Below, piece after piece: positions 3,683-18,263 of a stretch of DNA of 64,000 nucleotides. This stretch comes from Pseudomonadota bacterium. GTDB lineage: Bacteria; Pseudomonadota; Gammaproteobacteria; Burkholderiales; Thiobacillaceae. The stretch covers positions 101,300-165,299 of the forward strand of contig JAKADC010000007.1 in NCBI GenBank assembly GCA_021820845.1, read 5' to 3'. How positions within the stretch are numbered: the stretch's first letter is position 1; every line of letters starts with the position of its first letter. The translations under genes and the position numbers were made by a program. The notes under the pieces were generated by a model that saw only the letters and a program-made list of their open reading frames with translations, had not been told where the DNA came from and did no database searches.

Positions 3683-4462
3683 CTACGGAGTGTAGTCGTA
3701 ATCCACGATCAACGGCGCGTGGTCCGAGAAGCGCTGGTCCTTGTAGACGAAGGCGGACCTGGCCTGCGCCGCGATGCCGGGCGTCGCGATCTGGTAGTCG
3801 ATGCGCCAGCCGACGTTCCTGGCCCAGGCCTGGCCGCGGTTGCTCCACCAGGTGTAGGCCTCGCCGGCGTGGTCCGGGTAGAGGTTGCGGTAGACGTCGA
3901 CCCAGCCGAGCTCGTCGAACAGCCGCGTCATCCACGCGCGTTCCTCGGGGAGGAAGCCCGAATTCTTCTGGTTGGATTTCCAGTTCTTGAGGTCGATTTC
4001 CCTGTGGGCGATGTTCCAGTCGCCGCAGATGACGATTTCGCGCCCGCACTTCACGAGCTTTTCGAGATGCGGAAAGAACGCGTCGAGGAAGCGGAACTTG
4101 GCCTGCTGGCGCTCCTCGCTGCTGGAGCCGGATGGCTGGTAGAGCGAGATGACGGCGAGATCTCCGTAGTCGGCCTCGATGTAGCGCCCCTCGGCGTCGA
4201 ACTCGGGGACGCCGAGGCCTTCGACGATGCGCTGCGGCGGCTTTCGCGTGTAGACGCCGACGCCGCTGTAGCCCTTCTTCTCGGCGTAGTGGAAGGCGCC
4301 GGTCAGACCGTCGCAGGCCGTGAATTCCGGCTTGAGGTCGGCGGCCTGGGCCTTGAGTTCCTGCACGCAGACCACGTCGGCGCCCTGCGCGGGCAGCCAC
4401 TCGAAGAAGCCCTTGGTGGCGGCGGAACGGATGCCGTTGAGGTTGGCCGATATAATTCGCAT
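3683..4462 (-). CDS. xth: Exodeoxyribonuclease III / AP endonuclease
   Basis: [34 protein letters not shown] and FSDHAP EEP-family motifs; divergent from pyrE. Confidence 0.92.
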
Positions 4463-4489
4463 CAAGATCGATTCAAGAAATTTGCGGAA

Positions 4490-5128
4490 ATGTCCGATTA
4501 CAAAGCCGAGTTTGTGGAGTTCGCCATCGCTTCGAACGTGTTGTGCTTCGGCGAGTTCAAGACCAAGGCGGGGCGCATGAGCCCCTATTTTTTCAACGCA
4601 GGGCTGTTCAACGACGGCGACCGGCTGAAACGGCTGGGGGAATTTTACGCGAAAGCCATCGTCGACTCGGGGATCGCGTTCGACGTGCTGTTCGGTCCGG
4701 CCTACAAGGGCATTCCGCTGGCGGCGAGCATCGCGATCGCGCTGGCGGGCATGGGCAGGAACGTGCCGTACGCCTACAACCGCAAGGAAGCCAAGGACCA
4801 CGGCGAGGGCGGCACGGTGGTCGGCGCGGCGCTCGAGGGCCGCGTGCTGATCGTCGACGACGTGATCTCCGCGGGCACCTCGGTGCGCGAGTCGGTGAAC
4901 CTGATCCGGAGCGCGGGCGCCGAGCCGGCCGGCGTGGTGATCGCGCTGGACCGCATGGAACGCGGCACCGGCGAGAAGTCGGCGGTGCAGGAAGTGCGGG
5001 AACAATTTGGCATCCCGGTGGTGGCGGTGGTCACGCTGGACAATCTGGTGGAATTTCTGAAACGCGATGCGAACCGACAAACCGAATTGCAGGCCGTGGC
5101 CGCTTACCGTTCGACGTACGGCGTCTAG
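4490..5128 (+). CDS. pyrE: Orotate phosphoribosyltransferase
   Basis: [34 protein letters not shown]-binding [13 protein letters not shown]. Confidence 0.97.
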
Positions 5129-5711
5129 CCTGCTGGCCGCCGCGCTGCTGCTCGCGGCGGGCGCGAGCCAGGCGCAGTTGTATCGCTGGGTCGACGGCAG
5201 CGGCCGCGTGCATTACGGCGACACCCCGCCGACGACGTATCAGAAGAGCGGCGGCGCCGAGATGAACAAGCAGGGGCTGGTGATCAAGCGCACGCAGTCC
5301 GAGGCGGAGCGCAAGGCCGAGGCCGAGCGCCTGGCCGAGCAGCAGCGGGTGCTGGCGGAGCAGCAGCGGCAGGCGCAACTCGATCGCGCGCTGACCCAGA
5401 CCTATACCTCGGAAGCGGAAATCGACCTCGCGCGCGATCGCGCGCTGGAGAACTACAAGCTGATGAACCTCGGCGCCGAAACGCGGGCGCGCGCGGTCGA
5501 CGCGAATCTGGCCGACCTGCGCAACCGGATCGCCGCGCTGCGCAAGGCGGGCCGCGCGCCCGGGCAAAACCTGCAGGACCAGCTGGATCAGGCGGTGCGC
5601 GAAAGCGGCGAGCTGAAGCGGACCCTGCAGAACAACCAGGCCGCGATGGACGAGGTGCGGCAGAAGTATGCTGCCGACAAGCTTCGCTTTCGCGAACTGA
5701 CCGGCAAGTAA
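5067..5711 (+). CDS. DUF4124-domain exported protein with coiled-coil C-terminus
   Basis: Signal-like [15 protein letters not shown] followed by [18 protein letters not shown] (DUF4124 signature). The only in-frame ATG overlaps the pyrE end by 62 nt. Confidence 0.8.
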
Positions 5712-5735
5712 GCGGCGGCGCGCCGGGTCGGCGAC

Positions 5736-5766
5736 TGCGCCGGCCGGAGACACCCGGTCCGGCGCA
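5736..5766. terminator. GC-rich hairpin between convergent DUF4124 gene and gatB
   Basis: tgcgccgg-ccgg-agacac-ccgg-t-ccggcgca; no clear U-tract. Confidence 0.4.
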
Positions 5767-5777
5767 CCATACTCACG

Positions 5778-7223
5778 TTATTGCAGCCTGGCTTTCAGCA
5801 GCTCGTTGACCTGCGCCGGGTTGGCCTTGCCGCGGCTGGCCTTCATCACCTGGCCGACCAGCGCGTTGAAGGCCTTCTCCTTGCCGGCGCGGAACTCCTC
5901 GACCGACTTCGCGTTGGCGGCGAGCACTTCGTCGACGATCTTCTCCAGTTCGCCGGAATCGGACATCTGCTTCAGGCCGCGCGCCTCGATGATGGCGTCG
6001 ACTTCGCCGGCGCCTTCCCACAGCCCTTCGAACACCTGCTTGGCGAGCTTGCCCGAGAGCGTGCCGTCCTGGATGCGGGCAATCAGGGCGCCCAGTTGCG
6101 CGGCCGACACCGGGCTTCGCGCGATGTCGAGCTCGGCCTTGTTGAGCGCGGCGGATAACTCGCCCATCACCCAGTTGGCGGCGAGCTTGCCCTGGCCGCA
6201 CGCCTTCGCGGCGGCCTCGAAGTAATCGGCGAGCGCGCGCGACCCGGTCAACACGGCTGCGTCATAGGCCGACACGCCGTAATCGTTCTGGAAGCGCGCC
6301 TGCATCGCGGCGGGCAGTTCGGGCAGCGTCGATTTCACCCGCTCGATCCAGGCGTCGTCGAGCCTCACCGGCAGCAGGTCGGGATCGGGGAAGTAGCGGT
6401 AGTCGTGCGCCTCTTCCTTGCTGCGCATCATGCGCGTCTCGCCGCTGTCGGGATCGAACAGCACGGTGGCCTGCTCGATGCGGCCGCCGTCCTCGAGCGT
6501 CTCGATCTGCCAGCGGACTTCATAGTCGATCGCCTGCTGCAGGAAGCGGAACGAGTTGAGGTTCTTGATCTCGCGGCGGGTGCCGAATTCGGCCTGGCCC
6601 AGCGGGCGCACCGAAACGTTGGCGTCGACGCGGAAGCTGCCTTCCTGCATGTTGCCGTCGCAGATGCCGATCCAGGTCACCAGGCTATGCAGCGCACGGG
6701 CGTAGGCGACGGCCTCGGCGCTCGAACGCATCTCCGGCTCCGAGACGATCTCGAGGAGCGGCGTGCCGGCGCGGTTGAGGTCGATTCCGGTCATGCCGTG
6801 GAAGTCCTCGTGCAGCGACTTGCCGGCGTCCTCCTCCATGTGGGCGCGGGTGAGATGGATGACTCTTTCTTCCGACTGTCCTGAGCCTGTCGAAGGGACG
6901 ATGATGGTCAGCGTGCCGCCCTCGACGATGGGCTTCGCGAGCTGGCTGATCTGGTAGCCCTTCGGAAGGTCCGGGTAGAAATAGTTCTTGCGGTCGAACA
7001 CGTTGACGCGATTGAGCGTCGCGCCGATGGCGAGGCCGAACTTGATCGCGCACTCGACCGCGCCGCGGTTCAGCACCGGCAGCACGCCCGGCAGCGCGAT
7101 GTCGACGGCGGAGGCCTGCGTGTTGGGCGCGGCGCCGAAGGCGGTGCTGCTGCCGGAAAAGATCTTGGATCGGGTGGCGAGCTGGGTATGGACCTCCAGC
7201 CCGATGACGGTCTCCCATTTCAT
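5778..7223 (-). CDS. gatB: Asp-tRNA(Asn)/Glu-tRNA(Gln) amidotransferase subunit B
   Basis: [51 protein letters not shown]. Confidence 0.97.
6877..6897. repeat. REP-like short element TGTCCTGAGCCTGTCGAAGGG inserted in frame in gatB (encodes PSTGSGQ)
   Basis: The 21-mer is read directly. From memory it resembles a widespread CCTGAGCxTGTCGAAGG dispersed-repeat family. Only one copy was seen in this window. Confidence 0.55.
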
Positions 7224-10142: not shown

Positions 10143-10988
10143 ATGGCGATGCCGGGTCAGCTCATGTTCGCCCGCCGGCTCGGGCCGACGGCGCGCCTCG
10201 CGATCTGGCTCCTGGCGGGACTGGCCTGCGTGGTCATCGACAGCCGCTATCACGCGCTCGACGGCTTGCGCAGCGGGTTTTCCGTGCTGCTGCAGCCGGT
10301 GCGCGACGTCATGCGCGTGCCGGCCGACGTCGCCGCCGAACTCGCAGGCTTCTTCACCCGCCACCGTCTTCTGCAAAACGAACGCGATGCCCTTCTGCTT
10401 GAGCGGGCGCAACTCCTCGTCGGCGTGAACGATGCGAAGGAACTGGCGCGCGAAAATGCGGAACTGCGCGCGCTGCTGCGGCTGCGCGACCGCCCGGGCC
10501 AGGAGGTGGTGCACGCCGCGCTGCTGTACAAGGGACACGACTGGTTCGCCCAGCGCCTCACCCTGGACCAGGGCGCGAGCGGCGGCCTGCGCACCGGCAT
10601 GCCGGTGATCGATGCCGCCGGCCTCGTGGGGCAGGTGACCCGCGTGTATCCGGGGTCGAGCGAGGTCACGCTGGTGAGCAGCCCGGATCAGCTGACGCCG
10701 GTGCTCGTCGAGCGCACCGGCCAGCGCGGGCTCGCCGCCGGCACCGGGCGCGGACAGATGGAGCTGCGCTACATGCCCGCGCAGACTGATCTCAGGCCCG
10801 GCGACCGCCTGCTCACTTCGGGCATCGACGGCGTCTACCCCGCCGGCATCCCGGTGGCCGCCGTGAACCGCGTATCCCGCTCGCAATCGAGTCCCTACCT
10901 GCGCGTCGAGTGCATGCCGCTCGCCGGAATCGACCGCGCGCGCGGCGTGCTGGTGCTGATCGCGAAACCGCAGGCGAAGACCCGATGA
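10143..10988 (+). CDS. mreC: Rod shape-determining protein MreC
   Basis: N-terminal TM, coiled coil ENAELRALL, LVGQV, GDRLLTSGIDGVYPAGIPV; follows mreB. Confidence 0.93.
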   Translation: MAMPGQLMFARRLGPTARLAIWLLAGLACVVIDSRYHALDGLRSGFSVLLQPVRDVMRVPADVAAELAGFFTRHRLLQNERDALLLERAQLLVGVNDAKELARENAELRALLRLRDRPGQEVVHAALLYKGHDWFAQRLTLDQGASGGLRTGMPVIDAAGLVGQVTRVYPGSSEVTLVSSPDQLTPVLVERTGQRGLAAGTGRGQMELRYMPAQTDLRPGDRLLTSGIDGVYPAGIPVAAVNRVSRSQSSPYLRVECMPLAGIDRARGVLVLIAKPQAKTR

Positions 10989-11485
10989 ACGTATCCTCCC
11001 ACGCTTCCGGAAACTGGCGCCGCATCCTCGGCACGCTGACGCTCGCGGTGCTGCTGGAGCAGCTGCCGTGGTCCGGCTGGGCGCTCGTCGCGCGGCCGGA
11101 TTTCGTGCTCGTCGCCGTCCTGTTCTGGGCGCTGCATCAGCCCGCCCGCGTCGGCTTCGGCGTGGCGTTCTTCCTGGGCCTGCTCGCCGATTTCCAGGAT
11201 GGCGTGGTGTTCGGCCAGCATGCCATCGCCTATGTGGTCGGTGTCTATCTGGTGCTGTATCTGCGCCTGCGGCTGCTGCAGTTCGATCCGCACCGCCAGG
11301 CCGCCCAGATGTTCCCGATCTTTCTCGGCGCGCAGGCGGCGGTGCTGCTGGTCGGCTGGCTGGCGGTCAATCCGCCCACCGGGCTGAGCATCCTGGTGCC
11401 GGCGCTGGGAAGCACCCTGCTGTGGTACCTGATCGCCCTGTTCATGTGCCTGTGGCATGGCAAGGGTGCGCAGGACCGGGCGTGA
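10985..11485 (+). CDS. mreD: Rod shape-determining protein MreD
   Basis: Hydrophobic, RPDF/GLLADF motifs, ATGA overlap with mreC. Confidence 0.9.
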   Translation: MNVSSHASGNWRRILGTLTLAVLLEQLPWSGWALVARPDFVLVAVLFWALHQPARVGFGVAFFLGLLADFQDGVVFGQHAIAYVVGVYLVLYLRLRLLQFDPHRQAAQMFPIFLGAQAAVLLVGWLAVNPPTGLSILVPALGSTLLWYLIALFMCLWHGKGAQDRA

Positions 11486-11492
11486 GCAGGAC

Positions 11493-13385
11493 ATGCCGCT
11501 AGCCACGCCGCTCAAGAACCTGGATCGCGAGCTGGGCCGCTTTCACGGACGCATCAAGGCGGGCGCGGCGTTCGTCGCGCTGCTTGCCGTCGCGTTGCTC
11601 GGGCGCGGCTTTTACCTGCAGATCATGCAGAACGAGTACTACAACCAGCGCGCGGAAAACAATCGCATCTCGCTGGTGCCCGTCGCGCCCAACCGTGGCC
11701 TGATCCTGGACCGGAAAGGCCGCATTCTGGCGGAGAACTATTCCGCCTACACGCTCGAACTGGCGCGGGCGCAGCCGCGCGAACTGGAGGCCACGCTGGC
11801 CGAGGTGGGCAAGCTGATCAAGATCACGCCGGGCGAGCTGAGAAGCTTTCGGCGCCTGCTTGCCGAATCGCACGAGTTCGAGACCGTGCCGCTGAAAAGC
11901 AAGCTCACCGACGAGGAGGTGGCGATTCTGGCGGCCAATCATTACCGCCTGCCGGGCGTGGAGGTGAAGGCGCGCCTGTTCCGCAACTATCAGGCCGGGG
12001 CCGGCATGTCGCACGTGGTCGGGTTCATCGGCCGCATCAACGACCGCGATCTCAAGGCGCTGCGCGAATCCGGGCGCGAGCAGAACTACCGCGGCACGGT
12101 GCATATCGGCAAGACCGGCCTGGAACAGAGCTATGAAACGGTGCTGCACGGCCGCACCGGCTTCGACCAGATGGAAACGGACGCGAGCGGCCGCGCGGTG
12201 CGCGCGCTGTCGCGGATACCGCCGGTGCCGGGCAAGGATCTGCGCCTGTATCTCGACCGCGACCTGCAGGCGATCGCCGAACAGGCGTTCGGCGATTACA
12301 CGGGCGGGCTGGTGGCGCTCGATCCCAATACCGGCGGCGTGCTGGCATTGGTGAGCAAGCCCGGCTTCGACCCCAACCTGTTCATCGACGGCATCGACCC
12401 CGAAACGTGGAAGGCGCTCAACGACTCGCCCGAGCGGCCGATGGTGAACCGCGCGCTGCGCGGGCTCTATCCGCCGGGCTCGACGATCAAGCCCTTCATG
12501 GCACTGGCGGGGCTGGAACTGGGCGTGCGCAAGCCGACGGACCTCACGGTCGATCCCGGGTATTTCAGCCTGCCCAACAGCACGCACCAGTTTCGCGACT
12601 GGAAGCACGGCGGCCACGGGCTCGTCGACATGCGGCGGGCGATCGCGCAGTCGTGCGATACCTATTTCTACAAGCTCGCGTTCGACATGGGGATCGACCG
12701 CATGCACGATTACCTGGCGAAGTTCGGTTTCGGCGAAAAGACCGGCATCGACCTGGATGGCGAATCGCCGGGCCTGCTGCCTTCGCGCGAGTGGAAGCAG
12801 CGTCGCTGGAAGAAGGAGTGGTATCCCGGCGAAACGGTGATCGCGGGCATCGGCCAGGGCTACCATCTGGCGACGCCGCTGCAGCTGGCGACGGCGGTGG
12901 CCATGATCGCCAACGGCGGCAAGCGGATCGAGCCGCGCCTGGTCCAGGCGATGCGGGATCCGTTCACCCACGCCTGGCAGCCGCAGCCGGTCGCGGTGCG
13001 CGGGCAACTGGCGATCAAGCCCGAAGACCTCGCGGTGATCCGGCAGGGCATGATCGACACGATGCGGCCCGGCGGCACGGCCGCGGCGGCCGCGGCCGGC
13101 GCACCCTACACGATCGCCGGCAAGACCGGCACTGCCCAGGTGGTCGGCATCAAGCAGGGCGCCCGCTACGACGCCGCCACCCTGTCGCGGAAAAATCGCG
13201 ACCATGCCCTGTTCATCGCCTACGCCCCGGCCGAAAATCCGACCATCGCGGTCGCCGTGCTGGTCGAAAACGGCGGACACGGCGGCTCCGCCGCGGCGCC
13301 GATCGCGCGCGCGGTGTTCGATTACTACCTGACCGGGAAGCGTCCCGGCAAGATCCAGCCGGAGGGGAGCGATGCCTCGGATTAG
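11493..13385 (+). CDS. mrdA: Penicillin-binding protein 2
   Basis: YPPGSTIK (SxxK), QSCDTYFY (SxD), AGKTGTAQ (KTG). Confidence 0.96.
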   Translation: MPLATPLKNLDRELGRFHGRIKAGAAFVALLAVALLGRGFYLQIMQNEYYNQRAENNRISLVPVAPNRGLILDRKGRILAENYSAYTLELARAQPRELEATLAEVGKLIKITPGELRSFRRLLAESHEFETVPLKSKLTDEEVAILAANHYRLPGVEVKARLFRNYQAGAGMSHVVGFIGRINDRDLKALRESGREQNYRGTVHIGKTGLEQSYETVLHGRTGFDQMETDASGRAVRALSRIPPVPGKDLRLYLDRDLQAIAEQAFGDYTGGLVALDPNTGGVLALVSKPGFDPNLFIDGIDPETWKALNDSPERPMVNRALRGLYPPGSTIKPFMALAGLELGVRKPTDLTVDPGYFSLPNSTHQFRDWKHGGHGLVDMRRAIAQSCDTYFYKLAFDMGIDRMHDYLAKFGFGEKTGIDLDGESPGLLPSREWKQRRWKKEWYPGETVIAGIGQGYHLATPLQLATAVAMIANGGKRIEPRLVQAMRDPFTHAWQPQPVAVRGQLAIKPEDLAVIRQGMIDTMRPGGTAAAAAAGAPYTIAGKTGTAQVVGIKQGARYDAATLSRKNRDHALFIAYAPAENPTIAVAVLVENGGHGGSAAAPIARAVFDYYLTGKRPGKIQPEGSDASD

Positions 13386-14469
13386 CCATTGGGCACTGAG
13401 CGGCCTGCGTCACGTGGACGGCATCCTGCTGACGCTGGTGCTGCTGATGCTGGGCATCAGCCTGGCGGTCGTGACGAGCGCGTCGGGGGAAAGCCCGGCC
13501 CGCATCAGCGGCCATCTCGTCAACATGGGGCTGGCGCTGCTCGTGATGGTGATGATCGCCAACGTGCCGCCGCATCTGCTGTCGAAGGCGGGGCCGCCGC
13601 TGTACGTGGCGGGCGTGGTGCTTCTCGTCGGCGTCGCGCTGTTCGGCGAAGTCCGCAACGGCGCGCGGCGCTGGCTCAACCTCGGCTTCGCGTTCCAGCC
13701 GTCCGAACTTCTGAAGCTGGCCCTGCCGCTGATGCTGGCCTGGTATTTCCATCGCAACGAGGCGGTGCTGCGCGCCAAGCACTACCTGGTAGGCGGCGTC
13801 CTGTTGCTGGTGCCCTTCCTGCTCATCCTGCGCCAGCCCGACCTCGGCACCGCGCTCATGCTCGGCGCGTCCGGGTTTTACCTGCTGTTCTTCGCCGGCC
13901 TGCCGTGGAAGGTGATTGTCGGCGGCGCCGCGCTCGGCGCGGCCAGCCTGCCGGTCGTCTGGGGGTTCATGCACGATTACCAGCAGCGCCGCGTGTTGAT
14001 GCTGCTCGACCCCTCGTCCGACCCGCTCGGCGCCGGCTACCACATCATCCAGTCGACCATCGCCATCGGTTCCGGCGGCCTGTTCGGCAAGGGCTGGATG
14101 CAGGGCACGCAGAACCAGCTCGACTTCATCCCCGAGCGCACGACCGACTTCATCTACGCGGTGTTCGGCGAGGAATTCGGGTATGCCGGCGCGATCCTTC
14201 TGGTCGGCCTGTATCTGGCCATCGTCGCGCGCGGCCTCACCATCGCCGCGCGCGCGCCGACGCTGTTCGGCCGGCTGATGGCGGCCACGCTCAGCCTCAA
14301 TCTGTTCACCTATGTATTCGTCAACATGGGCATGGTGTCGGGCATCCTGCCGGTCGTCGGCGTGCCCTTGCCCTTGATGAGCTACGGCGGGACCGCGCTC
14401 GTCACGCTGTTGCTGGGCGTGGGCATCATGATGAGCGTGGCGACGCACCGTCAACTCAACAAATCATGA
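13372..14469 (+). CDS. rodA: SEDS glycosyltransferase RodA
   Basis: GARRWL, FQPSELLK, QPDLGT, FIPERTTDFI, PLMSYGGT. Confidence 0.96.
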   Translation: MPRISHWALSGLRHVDGILLTLVLLMLGISLAVVTSASGESPARISGHLVNMGLALLVMVMIANVPPHLLSKAGPPLYVAGVVLLVGVALFGEVRNGARRWLNLGFAFQPSELLKLALPLMLAWYFHRNEAVLRAKHYLVGGVLLLVPFLLILRQPDLGTALMLGASGFYLLFFAGLPWKVIVGGAALGAASLPVVWGFMHDYQQRRVLMLLDPSSDPLGAGYHIIQSTIAIGSGGLFGKGWMQGTQNQLDFIPERTTDFIYAVFGEEFGYAGAILLVGLYLAIVARGLTIAARAPTLFGRLMAATLSLNLFTYVFVNMGMVSGILPVVGVPLPLMSYGGTALVTLLLGVGIMMSVATHRQLNKS

Positions 14470-14481
14470 CGGGGTAAAATC

Positions 14482-15375
14482 ATGGGCATGAAGACACTAT
14501 CGCTCCTGGGCGTCGCGGCCCTCGCACTGGCCCTCGGCGGCTGTGCCAGCACGCCGCCCGAAAAACAGGCGCCGCAGGCCCCGCAGGCCCCGCAGGCCCC
14601 GCAGGCCCCGCAGGCGTCGAACGCTCCCCGCGGCGGCGGCTATTACCTGGACGACGGCCCCGAGGCGAACCCGCCCGGGAACCTGGACGCCGTTCCCGAC
14701 GCCGTGCCGCGCAGGGAGCCGTTGAACGCCACAGCCAACCGCACCTACGTCGCGCTGGGCACCACCTACACGCCGCAGACCACGCTGCGTCACTACAGCA
14801 AGGTGGGACTGGCCTCGTGGTACGGCCGCCGCTTCCAGGGCAAGAAGACCTCGTCGGGCGAGCGCTACGACATGTACGCCATGACGGCGGCGCATCCGAC
14901 CCTGCCCATCCCGAGCTACGCCCGGGTCACCTCGCTCGAGACCGGCAAGTCGGTGGTGGTTCGCATCAACGATCGCGGACCGTTCCACAGCAAGCGCATC
15001 ATCGATCTCTCGTACACCGCCGCCCACAAGCTTGGCTACCTGAAGAAGGGCAGCGCGCGGGTCCGGGTGGAAAGCATCGATCCCGACGCCGACGTCGCAC
15101 AGGTCGAGGCGCCGCAGGACGCGCAGGCCAAGGCGCCGCAGAACGGGATCTACCTGCAGGTCGGCGCGTTTTCCCGCGCCGACAACGCCCGCCAGTTGCG
15201 CGACCGGCTGCAGCGCAGCCTCGGCATCGACGCCGGCCAGGCGAGCGTGATCGTCGACGGCCGCCTGCACCGGGTTCAACTCGGCCCGTACGCCAGCGAC
15301 GACGCGGCGCAGTCGGCCCGGGAGCGGGTGCGGGAACGCCTGGACCTGAATGCAGTCCTCGTCAGACGCGATTGA
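14482..15375 (+). CDS. rlpA: Septal ring lytic transglycosylase lipoprotein RlpA
   Basis: Lipobox LGGC, GLASWYG, MTAAHPTLP, VRINDRGPF, C-terminal SPOR domain (IYLQVGAF). Confidence 0.95.
   Translation: MGMKTLSLLGVAALALALGGCASTPPEKQAPQAPQAPQAPQAPQASNAPRGGGYYLDDGPEANPPGNLDAVPDAVPRREPLNATANRTYVALGTTYTPQTTLRHYSKVGLASWYGRRFQGKKTSSGERYDMYAMTAAHPTLPIPSYARVTSLETGKSVVVRINDRGPFHSKRIIDLSYTAAHKLGYLKKGSARVRVESIDPDADVAQVEAPQDAQAKAPQNGIYLQVGAFSRADNARQLRDRLQRSLGIDAGQASVIVDGRLHRVQLGPYASDDAAQSARERVRERLDLNAVLVRRD
14572..14616 (+). repeat. 9-bp tandem repeat (CCGCAGGCC) x4 + 1 imperfect copy, encoding (PQA)n in the RlpA linker
   Basis: Read directly from the sequence. Confidence 0.9.
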
Positions 15376-15389
15376 TCGAAAGGACGAGC

Positions 15390-16505
15390 ATGAAAATCTT
15401 CTGGCTGGCGCTCACGCTCCTGTTTTCCGCGGCGGCGTGGGCGGCCCCGCCCGTCGCCTCGTCGCGCGCCTGGATCGTGATCGATGCGGCGAGCGGGCGC
15501 GACCTGGCATCCCAGCAGGCCGACCTGCCGCTGGCGCCCGGCTCGCTGACGCAGATGATGACCGCCTACGTCCTGCTCGGCGACATCCGCAGCGGCAAGT
15601 TGCGTCTGGACCAAACCGTCACCGTGCCGCAAGCCGCGGCCGTCGCCGACGGCGCGCGCATATTCCTCAAGCCCGGCGAGAAGGTCAGCATCGACGTCCT
15701 CCTGCGCGGCATGCTGGTGGAATCGGCGAGCGACGCGACGCTCACGCTCGTGACCGCGGCCGACGGCAGCGAGGCGGCATTCGTCGAGCGCATGAACCGC
15801 GAGGCGAGGCGGCTGGGCATGACGAAAACCCGTTTCGTCAACGCGACCGGCCTCGCCGCGCCCGGTCATCAGTCGAGCGTGCGCGACCTTGCCCTGCTCG
15901 CGCGCGCACTGCTCCGCGATTTTCCGGGCCAGTCGGCATTCTTCGGCCAGAAGGAGCTGGCGTTCCAGGGCGTCACGTATTACAACGGCAACCGCCTGCT
16001 GTGGCGCGACGATACCGTGACCGGCGTGAAGGCCGGACGGACGCCGCAGGCGGGCTACTGCCTGGCGGCGTCGGCGCAGCGCGGCGACCAGCGCCGCATC
16101 GCGGTCGTGCTGGATGCGCGGTCGGATGCGCAGCGCACGCAGGATGCGCTGAAGCTCCTGAACTACGCTTTCGAGACCTTCGACAGCATCCCGCTCTATC
16201 GCGCGGGCCAGACCATCAAGATCGTCAACGTTTACCGCGGCGAGCGCGCGCTGCTGCGGATCGGGTTCGCGCAGGATTTCCATGCGGTCGTGCCCCGCGG
16301 GGCCGCGTCGCGCATGAAGGCGGAGCTCGTCACCCGGCAGCCCATCGTGGCGCCGGTGCGCAAGGGGGAACAGGTCGGCAGCCTGCGGCTCACGCTCGAC
16401 GGCCAGCCGCTCGGCGACTATCCGCTGGTCGCGCTGCACGACGTCGGCGTGGCCGGCATCCTCGGACGCGGCTGGGATTCGCTGCGGCTGTTTTTCGCGA
16501 AATGA
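15390..16505 (+). CDS. D-alanyl-D-alanine carboxypeptidase (PBP5/6, peptidase S11) homologue with degenerate catalytic motifs
   Basis: Syntenic dacA position, S11 fold-like sequence and PBP5_C-like tail, but the motifs read SLTQ, SAS and KAG. Confidence 0.85.
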   Translation: MKIFWLALTLLFSAAAWAAPPVASSRAWIVIDAASGRDLASQQADLPLAPGSLTQMMTAYVLLGDIRSGKLRLDQTVTVPQAAAVADGARIFLKPGEKVSIDVLLRGMLVESASDATLTLVTAADGSEAAFVERMNREARRLGMTKTRFVNATGLAAPGHQSSVRDLALLARALLRDFPGQSAFFGQKELAFQGVTYYNGNRLLWRDDTVTGVKAGRTPQAGYCLAASAQRGDQRRIAVVLDARSDAQRTQDALKLLNYAFETFDSIPLYRAGQTIKIVNVYRGERALLRIGFAQDFHAVVPRGAASRMKAELVTRQPIVAPVRKGEQVGSLRLTLDGQPLGDYPLVALHDVGVAGILGRGWDSLRLFFAK

Positions 16506-17365
16506 GCGTCTATCTCAACGGCCGCTTCCTGCCGCTCGGCGAGGCGAAGGTGTCGGTGCTCGACCGCGGCTTTCTCTTCGGCGACGGCGTCTACGAGGTG
16601 GTGCCGGTGTATTCGAACAAGCCGTTCCGCCTCGACGATCACCTGCGCCGATTGCAGCGCAGCCTCGACGGCATCCGGCTGGCCAACCCGCACACCATCG
16701 CCGAATGGCGCGAGCGCATCCTGCAGCTGATCGCGCTGCAGGACTTCGCCGACCAGTCGGTCTACGTGCAGGTGACGCGCGGCACGCCGGGCGAGGGGCA
16801 GCCGCCGCGTGACCACGTGTTTCCGCAAGCCACGCCGCCGACGGTATTCCTGTTCGCGCAGCCGCTCGTGACCGCCACCCCGGCGCAGAAGGCGGCGGGC
16901 GTGTGCGCCGTCAGCGCGGTCGACAATCGCTGGCTGCGCGGCGACATCAAGGCGATCTCGCTGCTCGCCAACGTCCTGCTGCGGCAGCGGGCGATCGACG
17001 CGGACTGCGCCGAAACCGTGATGCTGCGGGACGGCTTCCTCACCGAGGGCTCGGCAAGCAATATTTTCGTGGTGAAGGACGGCGTGCTGCGGACGCCGCC
17101 GGCGTCCAACCTGATGCTCACCGGCATCACCCACGACGTGGTGCTCGAACTCGCCGCCGCCCACGGCATCCCGCACGAGGTGCGCGCGATTCCCGAGGCC
17201 GAGGTGCGCGCGGCCGACGAACTGTGGATGACCTCGTCGACGCGGGAAATCCTGGCGATCGTGAAGCTCGACGGCGTGCCTGTCGGCGCCGGCGCGCCGG
17301 GACCGCTGGCGCGTCGCATGGATGCGCTGTACCAGACCTTCAAGCAGGAGGTGATGCGGGCATGA
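16502..17365 (+). CDS. dat: D-amino acid aminotransferase (class IV PLP)
   Basis: [38 protein letters not shown]. Confidence 0.88.
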
Positions 17366-17628
17366 GCCAGGAGGACACGCTGCTCGAGTTCCCCGCCGAC
17401 TTCCCGATCAAGATCATGGGCGAGCGGCGCGAGGGCTTCGCGCAAGCCATGGTCGAACTGGTCCTGCGCCACGCGCCGGATTTCAAGGCCGAAACCGTCG
17501 AAATGCGCGCGTCGCGCAGCGGCAACTACCTGTCGGTGACGTGCGTGGTGCGCGCCACCTCGAAAGCGCAGCTCGACGCGCTGTACCGCGAGATCACGTC
17601 CCACCCGTGGGTGAAGATGGCATTGTGA
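17362..17628 (+). CDS. ybeD: YbeD / DUF493 family protein
   Basis: [24 protein letters not shown]; upstream of lipB. Confidence 0.9.
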
Positions 17629-18263
17629 ACGCCGGGCGCGAAGGCGAACGCGGGGAGCGGGCGGTCGTGCGCCGCCTCGGACGGGTCGAGTACGAGCCGA
17701 CGTGGCGGGCGATGCGGGATTTCACCGCGCGGCGCACGCCGGCGACGCCGGACGAATTGTGGCTCGTCGAGCATCCGCCCGTTTACACCCAGGGACAGGC
17801 CGGCAAGCCCGAGCATCTCATCGCATCCACCGACATCCCCGTCGTGCAGATCGACCGCGGCGGCCAGATCACCTATCACGGCCCGGGGCAGGCGGTCGTC
17901 TACGTCCTGGTCGACCTGCGCCGCCGCGGCTATGGCATCCGCGAACTCGTGACGCGCATGGAACAGGCGGTGATCGACCTTCTCGCGGTCCACGGCGTCG
18001 CTGCCGAACGGCTGGCCGGCGCGCCGGGCGTGTACGTCGGCGGCGCCAAGATCGCCGCGCTGGGGCTGCGCGTCAGGCACGGCTGCACCTATCACGGGCT
18101 GGCATTCAACGTCGACATGGACCTGGCGCCGTTCGCCGCCATCAACCCCTGCGGCTACGCCGGACTGCCGGTGACGCAATGCCGCGACCTCGGGATTTCG
18201 TTGCGGTTCGCGGACGCCGGCCCGGCCCTGGCGGATGCGCTGCTCGACCGCATCTATTCTTGA
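17625..18263 (+). CDS. lipB: Lipoyl(octanoyl) transferase
   Basis: [43 protein letters not shown]; GTG start overlaps the ybeD stop. Confidence 0.96.

Follow-up and report, generated by a model that had tools for sequence, protein, structure and literature searches.

The gene dac*, found in a window of 64,000 nucleotides (the whole stretch of DNA analysed here), probably encodes an exported, anchored protein that has the complete PBP5 fold, that is no longer a D,D-carboxypeptidase or PBP, and that selection has maintained because it serves the cell envelope in a non-catalytic way. Low-molecular-mass PBPs are usually regarded as dispensable trimming enzymes. The Thiobacillus case presents an apparently dead copy that is selected genus-wide within an elongasome operon, with visible intermediates, and with a replacement that seems to have been acquired beforehand. 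Such a case would represent a clean natural experiment on the PBP5 fold apart from catalysis. The gene and its parts are arranged as follows, with positions given in the window:

15381 to 15384, plus strand: Shine-Dalgarno-like AGGA, 5 nucleotides 5' of the dac* ATG, read from the sequence
15390 to 16505, plus strand: dac* (P0001), a 371-residue PBP5/DacA-type putative pseudo-carboxypeptidase (ORF without stops; Pfam S11 and PBP5_C; AlphaFold2 model)
15390 to 15446, plus strand: putative signal peptide, residues 1-19, MKIFWLALTLLFSAAAWA with A following the cleavage site, which was judged by eye
15543 to 15554, plus strand: motif 1, S52-L-T-Q55 (SxxK in which Gln takes the place of Lys; codon CAG at 15552-15554), from sequence and alignment
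15723 to 15731, plus strand: motif 2, S112-A-S114 (SxN with Asn lost), from sequence and alignment
15987 to 15989, plus strand: Gly200 at the place of PBP5 Arg198 (NRN to NGN), from alignment A1
16029 to 16040, plus strand: motif 3, K214-A-G216-R217 (KTG-H in which Thr is missing and Arg stands for His; K-A-G at 16029-16037), from sequence and alignment
16134 to 16136, plus strand: Arg249, equivalent to PBP5 Arg248 and kept (invariant in 40/40 rows of alignment A1 and in 99% of the clade)
16179 to 16445, plus strand: PBP5_C beta-sandwich domain, residues 264-352 (Pfam PF07943, 66.7 bits; AlphaFold2 beta strands)
16458 to 16502, plus strand: C-terminal amphipathic helix, residues 357-371, a predicted membrane anchor of the PBP5 type (AlphaFold2 helix 357-370; conserved residues)

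A sequence-only reading of this DNA had described a full-length ORF with a signal peptide, a C-terminal domain and three degenerate motifs, S-L-T-Q, S-A-S and K-A-G, and its placement of the motifs is correct to the base. The architecture is likewise borne out, as the leader is a hydrophobic N-terminus ending in AWA, Pfam assigns Peptidase_S11 (PF00768) to residues 19-244 with 204 bits in addition to PBP5_C, and residues R360, W362, D363 and L367 of the C-terminal helix are common to canonical and degenerate sequences in the alignment. The AlphaFold2 model, built from a 40-sequence alignment, has a pLDDT of 91.5 and a pTM of 0.85, with an N-terminal helix at residues 2-13 followed by a low-confidence linker, both domains, and the C-terminal helix. 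The structure prediction suggested by the earlier reading thus returns a confident PBP5/6 fold, and Foldseek superimposes the model on PBP5 and PBP6 with TM scores of 0.87-0.93, an rmsd of 1.7-2.0 A, and E values of 1e-36 to 1e-41.

In PBP5, Lys47 is the general base for both acylation and deacylation, and in PBP5 and PBP6 the residues Asn112, Thr214 and Arg198 hold acyl-D-Ala-D-Ala. In the HMMER alignment of dac* with P. aeruginosa PBP5 (4k91; E 2e-76), the residues Q, S and A of dac* exactly face K, N and T. The losses extend beyond the three motifs, with Gly200 as the equivalent of PBP5 Arg198 and Arg217 as the equivalent of His216, where the correspondence of Gly200 to Arg198 follows the numbering of E. 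coli PBP5. Since the equivalents of the four residues Lys47, Asn112, Thr214 and Arg198 are gone, normal carboxypeptidase or penicillin-binding activity is judged, with considerable confidence, to be lost. Kept are the nucleophile Ser52 and the residues Ser112, Lys214, Gly216 and Arg249. Set against the definition of a type-5 low-molecular-mass PBP (MEROPS S11), dac* has the homology and fold of both domains, the signal peptide and the anchor, and lacks intact SxxK, SxN and KTG motifs; an intact ORF with broken catalytic motifs that is conserved under selection places it among degenerate type-5 PBPs. Its score against the NCBIfam equivalogs for DacA (NF008059), DacC-type (NF007445) and DacD (NF008489) is 237-250 bits, below the cut-offs of 610-765 bits.

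The neighbouring genes are the following:

11457 to 13385, plus strand: mrdA (PBP2), with Pfam PBP_dimer and Transpeptidase
13372 to 14469, plus strand: rodA, with Pfam FTSW_RODA_SPOVE
14482 to 15375, plus strand: rlpA (DPBB and SPOR), ending 14 nucleotides upstream of dac*
16502 to 17365, plus strand: dat (class IV aminotransferase, Aminotran_4), the ATG overlapping the dac* stop codon (ATGA)
17362 to 17628, plus strand: ybeD (DUF493)
17541 to 18263, plus strand: lipB, start codon uncertain

The overlap of the dat initiation codon with the dac* termination codon is suggestive of translational coupling. A terminator-like match at 16467-16486, in the 3' end of dac*, is put down to chance, as 10 such matches occur in a region where 4.6 are expected, and the start of dat overlaps the dac* stop. 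The rlpA-dac-dat-ybeD-lipB position noted from the sequence alone is confirmed by the Pfam matches of the neighbours and by synteny with intact DacA elsewhere. In seven other families of the order, an intact DacA (SLTK/SGN/KTG) occupies the same dac-dat-(ybeD)-lipB arrangement, so that by position dac* is orthologous to the active DacA of sister genera (mrdA-rodA-rlpA-dac-dat-ybeD-lipB). The operon context is ancestral, and tells nothing new about the dead form.

The degenerate state is a property of the genus and not of one genome. The orthologue is present as an intact ORF of ~371 residues in 23 other Thiobacillus species, with 64-74% identity, and in a family-level sample it is found in 45/45 genomes of the genus (57-80% identity), whereas the other 14 genera have only a gene that is 43-52% identical. 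Gln stands at the place of the SxxK Lys in 23/23 crown species genomes and in 121/121 metagenomic cluster representatives (at least 69% identity), and Q55 is invariant in 143/143 crown-clade sequences. In the clade, motif 2 reads S-A-[S/G/V/A/T] and motif 3 reads K-[V/A/S]-G, and the Arg200 position, which is R in 100% of canonical sequences, is G, A, S or D in the Gln-type clade. The orthologues therefore do not carry K, N and T, the outcome that the earlier reading had named as evidence against itself. In one 70%-complete genome, the orthologue is found in two overlapping pieces (G012:C126:1085-2117), owing to a frameshift or an assembly error.

The rate of evolution, a second check that had been proposed, also speaks for the earlier reading. 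The median pairwise dN/dS (NG86) of the dead copy is 0.21, equal in effect to the 0.22 of the intact paralogue in the same genomes. These are pairwise Nei-Gojobori estimates only; dS comes near 1 between distant genomes, and the weight therefore lies with the closest pairs, for which the dead copy has a dS of 0.26-0.5 and an omega of 0.09-0.31. Over the same genome pairs, the ratio of dN in the dead copy to dN in the live copy is 0.5-3.3, with a median of ~1. The dead copy is under normal purifying selection across the genus, and its rate of evolution is as low as that of the live copy.

The distribution of constraint within the protein is uneven. Only 27% of mature residues are invariant in the 143 crown sequences, and these include Ser52, Leu53, Thr54, Gln55, Ser112, Ala113, Lys214, Gly216 and Arg249, as well as the clade-specific invariant residues P47, D65, D87, R134, Y198, Q234, R236, Q251 and E262. 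Positions 114, 200, 215 and 217 are variable. The replaced substrate-contact positions thus appear relaxed, and Gln55 and the rest of the pocket appear constrained, which is the main reason for still entertaining a reading with ligand binding or with residual or altered chemistry.

The maximum-likelihood tree and two basal species allow the losses to be ordered. The Gln-type clade (23 rows, SH-aLRT 97) adjoins G080 and G139, two species of the same genus, and the group so formed (SH-aLRT 100) is nested among the syntenic DacAs of the family. The two basal genes, G080 (L034) and G139 (L035), are intermediates, in that SLTK and KTG are kept, motif 2 reads S-A-[S/T], and Arg or Ser is found at His216. 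Of the positions that hardly vary in active relatives, 16 have been replaced in the clade, and 13 of the 16 are changed already in both basal species, including S80P, S89A, M91V/I, N114S/T, Q197Y/F and D211T; E122T is found, among the basal species, in G139 only. The changes specific to the crown are K55Q, T215V/A and, mostly, R200G. The SxN Asn and several loop residues were lost in the ancestor of the genus, followed in the crown by the SxxK Lys, the KTG Thr and, mostly, the equivalent of Arg198.

A search of the genome for a second, intact dacA, also called for by the sequence-only reading, was successful. The genome has three S11 genes, namely the dead dac*, a PbpG-like endopeptidase, and an intact DacA of 385-392 residues (SLTK/SGN/KTG) that lies beside pyrD on another contig and is 40% identical to dac*. 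Against P. aeruginosa PBP5, the intact paralogue scores 528 bits and the dead copy 261 bits, and in the tree the paralogue sits on a long separate branch. It is possibly a horizontally acquired, Pseudomonas-type paralogue, the one ground for a foreign origin being its much higher similarity to the Pseudomonas PBP5. Arrival on a mobile island was considered and rejected, as the neighbours are housekeeping genes (pyrD, 2-oxoacid dehydrogenase) and show no sign of a mobile element.

The intact paralogue is present in every Gln-type genome of the samples. It is also present in G139, where Lys55 is kept, with 72% identity to the copy of the genome studied here, and the simplest order of events is thus that the paralogue came first and the loss of Lys later. 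In the case of G080, whose genome is 100% complete, there is no paralogue, and only the Asn-less copy and PbpG are found. Activity may persist in the Asn-less form; if not, this species manages without any PBP5-type carboxypeptidase. Degeneration accordingly needed no backup in its first steps, which may have left activity in place.

Two subtypes of the paralogue can be distinguished within the genus (L001, L044-L053), one found beside pyrD and 72-91% identical to the copy of this genome, the other found elsewhere and 62-67% identical. Their distribution departs from the tree of the dead copy, hinting at exchange or at two acquisitions. Contig C5 of the same genome (L071) carries on its minus strand, at 10415-13417, a 1000-residue ORF with two lipoyl domains, an E3-binding domain, an E2 core and a complete dihydrolipoamide dehydrogenase (E3), an apparent E2-E3 fusion adjoining the E1 alpha and beta genes. 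Also on the minus strand, at 3724-6120, is a 798-residue ORF whose alanine dehydrogenase/PNT domains are confined to residues 442-788; Pfam matches nothing in the first 440, and the ORF may be over-extended in high-GC DNA.

Degeneration of this kind is not confined to Thiobacillus. Among the 150 nearest relatives, taken as the best matches of a HMMER scan of 1.84 billion cluster representatives, ~23 are full-length with broken motifs. Examples include AMAQ/GAN/ADA in Uliginosibacterium, ELVR/GAN/AAA in an Acidiferrobacteraceae member, and DLVK/SSN/AAA, and replacement of the SxxK Lys by Gln arose independently in P0133 (AMAQ). On the tree of representatives there are at least 10 state changes, at least 6 of them forced by well-supported branches, and the Thiobacillus clade has its own origin. 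In these other degenerate lineages, retention is down to 35% for Ser52, 13% for Lys214 and 39% for Gly216, with core and domain-II positions 83-100% conserved.

All four of the degenerate genes whose context is readable (P0133, P0242, P0212 and P0162; L072, L073, L075 and L076), from Uliginosibacterium, Acidiferrobacteraceae and two further assemblies, share one locus, (mreCD-mrdA-rodA-mltB-rlpA)-dac*-(dat)-ybeD-lipB-lipA. Three of these genomes were searched whole: one has an intact DacA too, one has only PbpG besides, and one has no other S11 gene, the sole member in the whole assembly (G181, GCA_050485545.1; L075/L080) being the degenerate DLVK/SSN/AAA form. In 16 other families of the order sampled by one genome each, the gene is intact in 15; the remaining genome, G026 (L093), has S112N and KTG changed to MAG, and contains a PbpG-like gene and no intact PBP5-type enzyme. 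Because one locus has repeatedly undergone this conversion, a single tractable model might account for many lineages.

A mechanism consistent with these observations would have the acquired paralogue take over pentapeptide trimming, and would leave the native dac* copy in one transcript with mrdA-rodA-rlpA, its translation coupled to that of dat. The product of dac* would then act by binding and not by chemistry, as a scaffold or regulator at side-wall synthesis sites or, alternatively, by binding a wall ligand in a remodelled pocket. That the protein is under selection and is predicted to be exported, anchored, folded and expressed from an elongasome operon hints at such a non-catalytic role, be it as scaffold, regulator or binder, at the sites of side-wall synthesis, and the strict invariance of Gln55, Ser52, Ser112, Lys214, Gly216 and Arg249 points to a pocket that remains in use. 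A broader and speculative proposal, for which the odds are rather poor, is that PBP5-type proteins have a second, catalysis-independent role, structural or regulatory, in the Rod system or elongasome, one that is kept at each of the turns from syntenic dacA to pseudoenzyme, of which Proteobacteria show at least 6, with the Thiobacillus variant, given its invariant Gln55 and largely preserved pocket, still binding a wall ligand non-covalently.

A special case of the non-catalytic reading, and an unlikely one, is that the protein is a non-covalent reader of peptidoglycan stems (pentapeptide or tetrapeptide), which would shield stems from the paralogue or localise to new wall. Retention of Ser52, Ser112, Lys214, Gly216 and Arg249 in the pocket is in keeping with this role, as are the membrane anchor, the stalk domain, and the position of the gene in the elongasome operon, from which it is presumably expressed. 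However, the contacts to the terminal D-Ala-D-Ala, the equivalents of Arg198, Thr214 and Asn112, are exactly the ones lost, and independent dead lineages drop the whole pocket and keep the gene. Thus, while the non-catalytic role favoured by the sequence-only reading is supported, D-Ala-D-Ala stem binding in the classical sense has the least support among the roles it suggested.

It is more doubtful still that dac* encodes an enzyme in which Ser52, together with Lys214, Ser112 and Gln55, carries out a slow or different acyl transfer, whether on another substrate, as an esterase-like activity, or as a sensor with a long-lived acyl-enzyme. The invariance of Ser52, Ser112, Lys214, Gly216, Arg249 and Gln55 in all 143 sequences, in a protein where 27% of mature positions are invariant, speaks for chemistry, and the Thiobacillus pocket is unusually well preserved given that the same residues are freely lost in other degenerate lineages. 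However, the SxxK lysine is absent, and we know of no PBP or serine beta-lactamase that works without it. The equivalents of Asn114, Thr215 and Arg200 have moreover become variable small or hydrophobic residues, which has the appearance of relaxation and not of re-tooling. The view that the gene is a pseudogene, has decayed in this strain or was misread in sequencing has nothing in its favour besides the three substitutions themselves, and is rejected with near certainty, as the earlier reading had anticipated, because 23 species genomes and 121 independent metagenomic clusters show the same substitutions, in ORFs that are all intact at ~371 residues with a dN/dS of ~0.2.

If dac* is indeed a selected protein without carboxypeptidase activity, annotations as 'D-alanyl-D-alanine carboxypeptidase' would be functionally wrong in Thiobacillus and in several sulfur-oxidising and related Proteobacteria. 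Dead PBP5 homologues are a published, barely explored kind of protein, and the Thiobacillus form is not unique; a literature search found no paper on a dead PBP5 of Thiobacillus or on recurrence at this locus. The published example is DacC of Neisseria (PMC6365954, citing Obergfell et al. 2018). According to that review, the pathogenic Neisseria have no other type-5 PBP homologue, and the N. gonorrhoeae protein has none of the three motifs; its mutation is reported to change the composition of the sacculus little and, together with that of dacB, to cause loss of pili, and a scaffold role is proposed. The likeness to dac* is that both are degenerate type-5 homologues from a betaproteobacterium, intact and exported, with a proposed scaffold role. 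The differences are that all three motifs are gone in the Neisseria protein, whereas Thiobacillus keeps the SxxK Ser, the SxN Ser, and the KTG Lys and Gly, and that the other DD-carboxypeptidase of Neisseria is a PBP4-type DacB, whereas Thiobacillus has a second PBP5. It is unlikely that the two dead forms descend from one another or from a shared dead ancestor, and likely that they arose independently, given that the nearest relatives of the Thiobacillus clade are intact, that intact forms lie between the two in the tree, and that at least 6-10 state changes are counted.

With the active enzymes PBP5 (DacA) and PBP6 (DacC) of E. coli and PBP5 of P. aeruginosa (1nzo, 3it9, 4k91), dac* shares the two-domain fold, the signal peptide, the amphipathic anchor, and the genomic position after rodA-rlpA and before ybeD-lipB. 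It differs from them in the replacement of the general-base Lys, the SxN Asn, the KTG Thr, and the equivalents of Arg198 and His216, and in ~16 near-invariant positions overall, mostly around the active site and in the loop over it. A further parallel is provided by the inactive LytM factors EnvC, NlpD and DipM, where degenerate peptidoglycan hydrolase folds likewise persist and regulate or scaffold the remodelling of the wall (for DipM, PMC10336132), although these have the unrelated M23 metallopeptidase fold, and both their partners and their activation mechanism are known.
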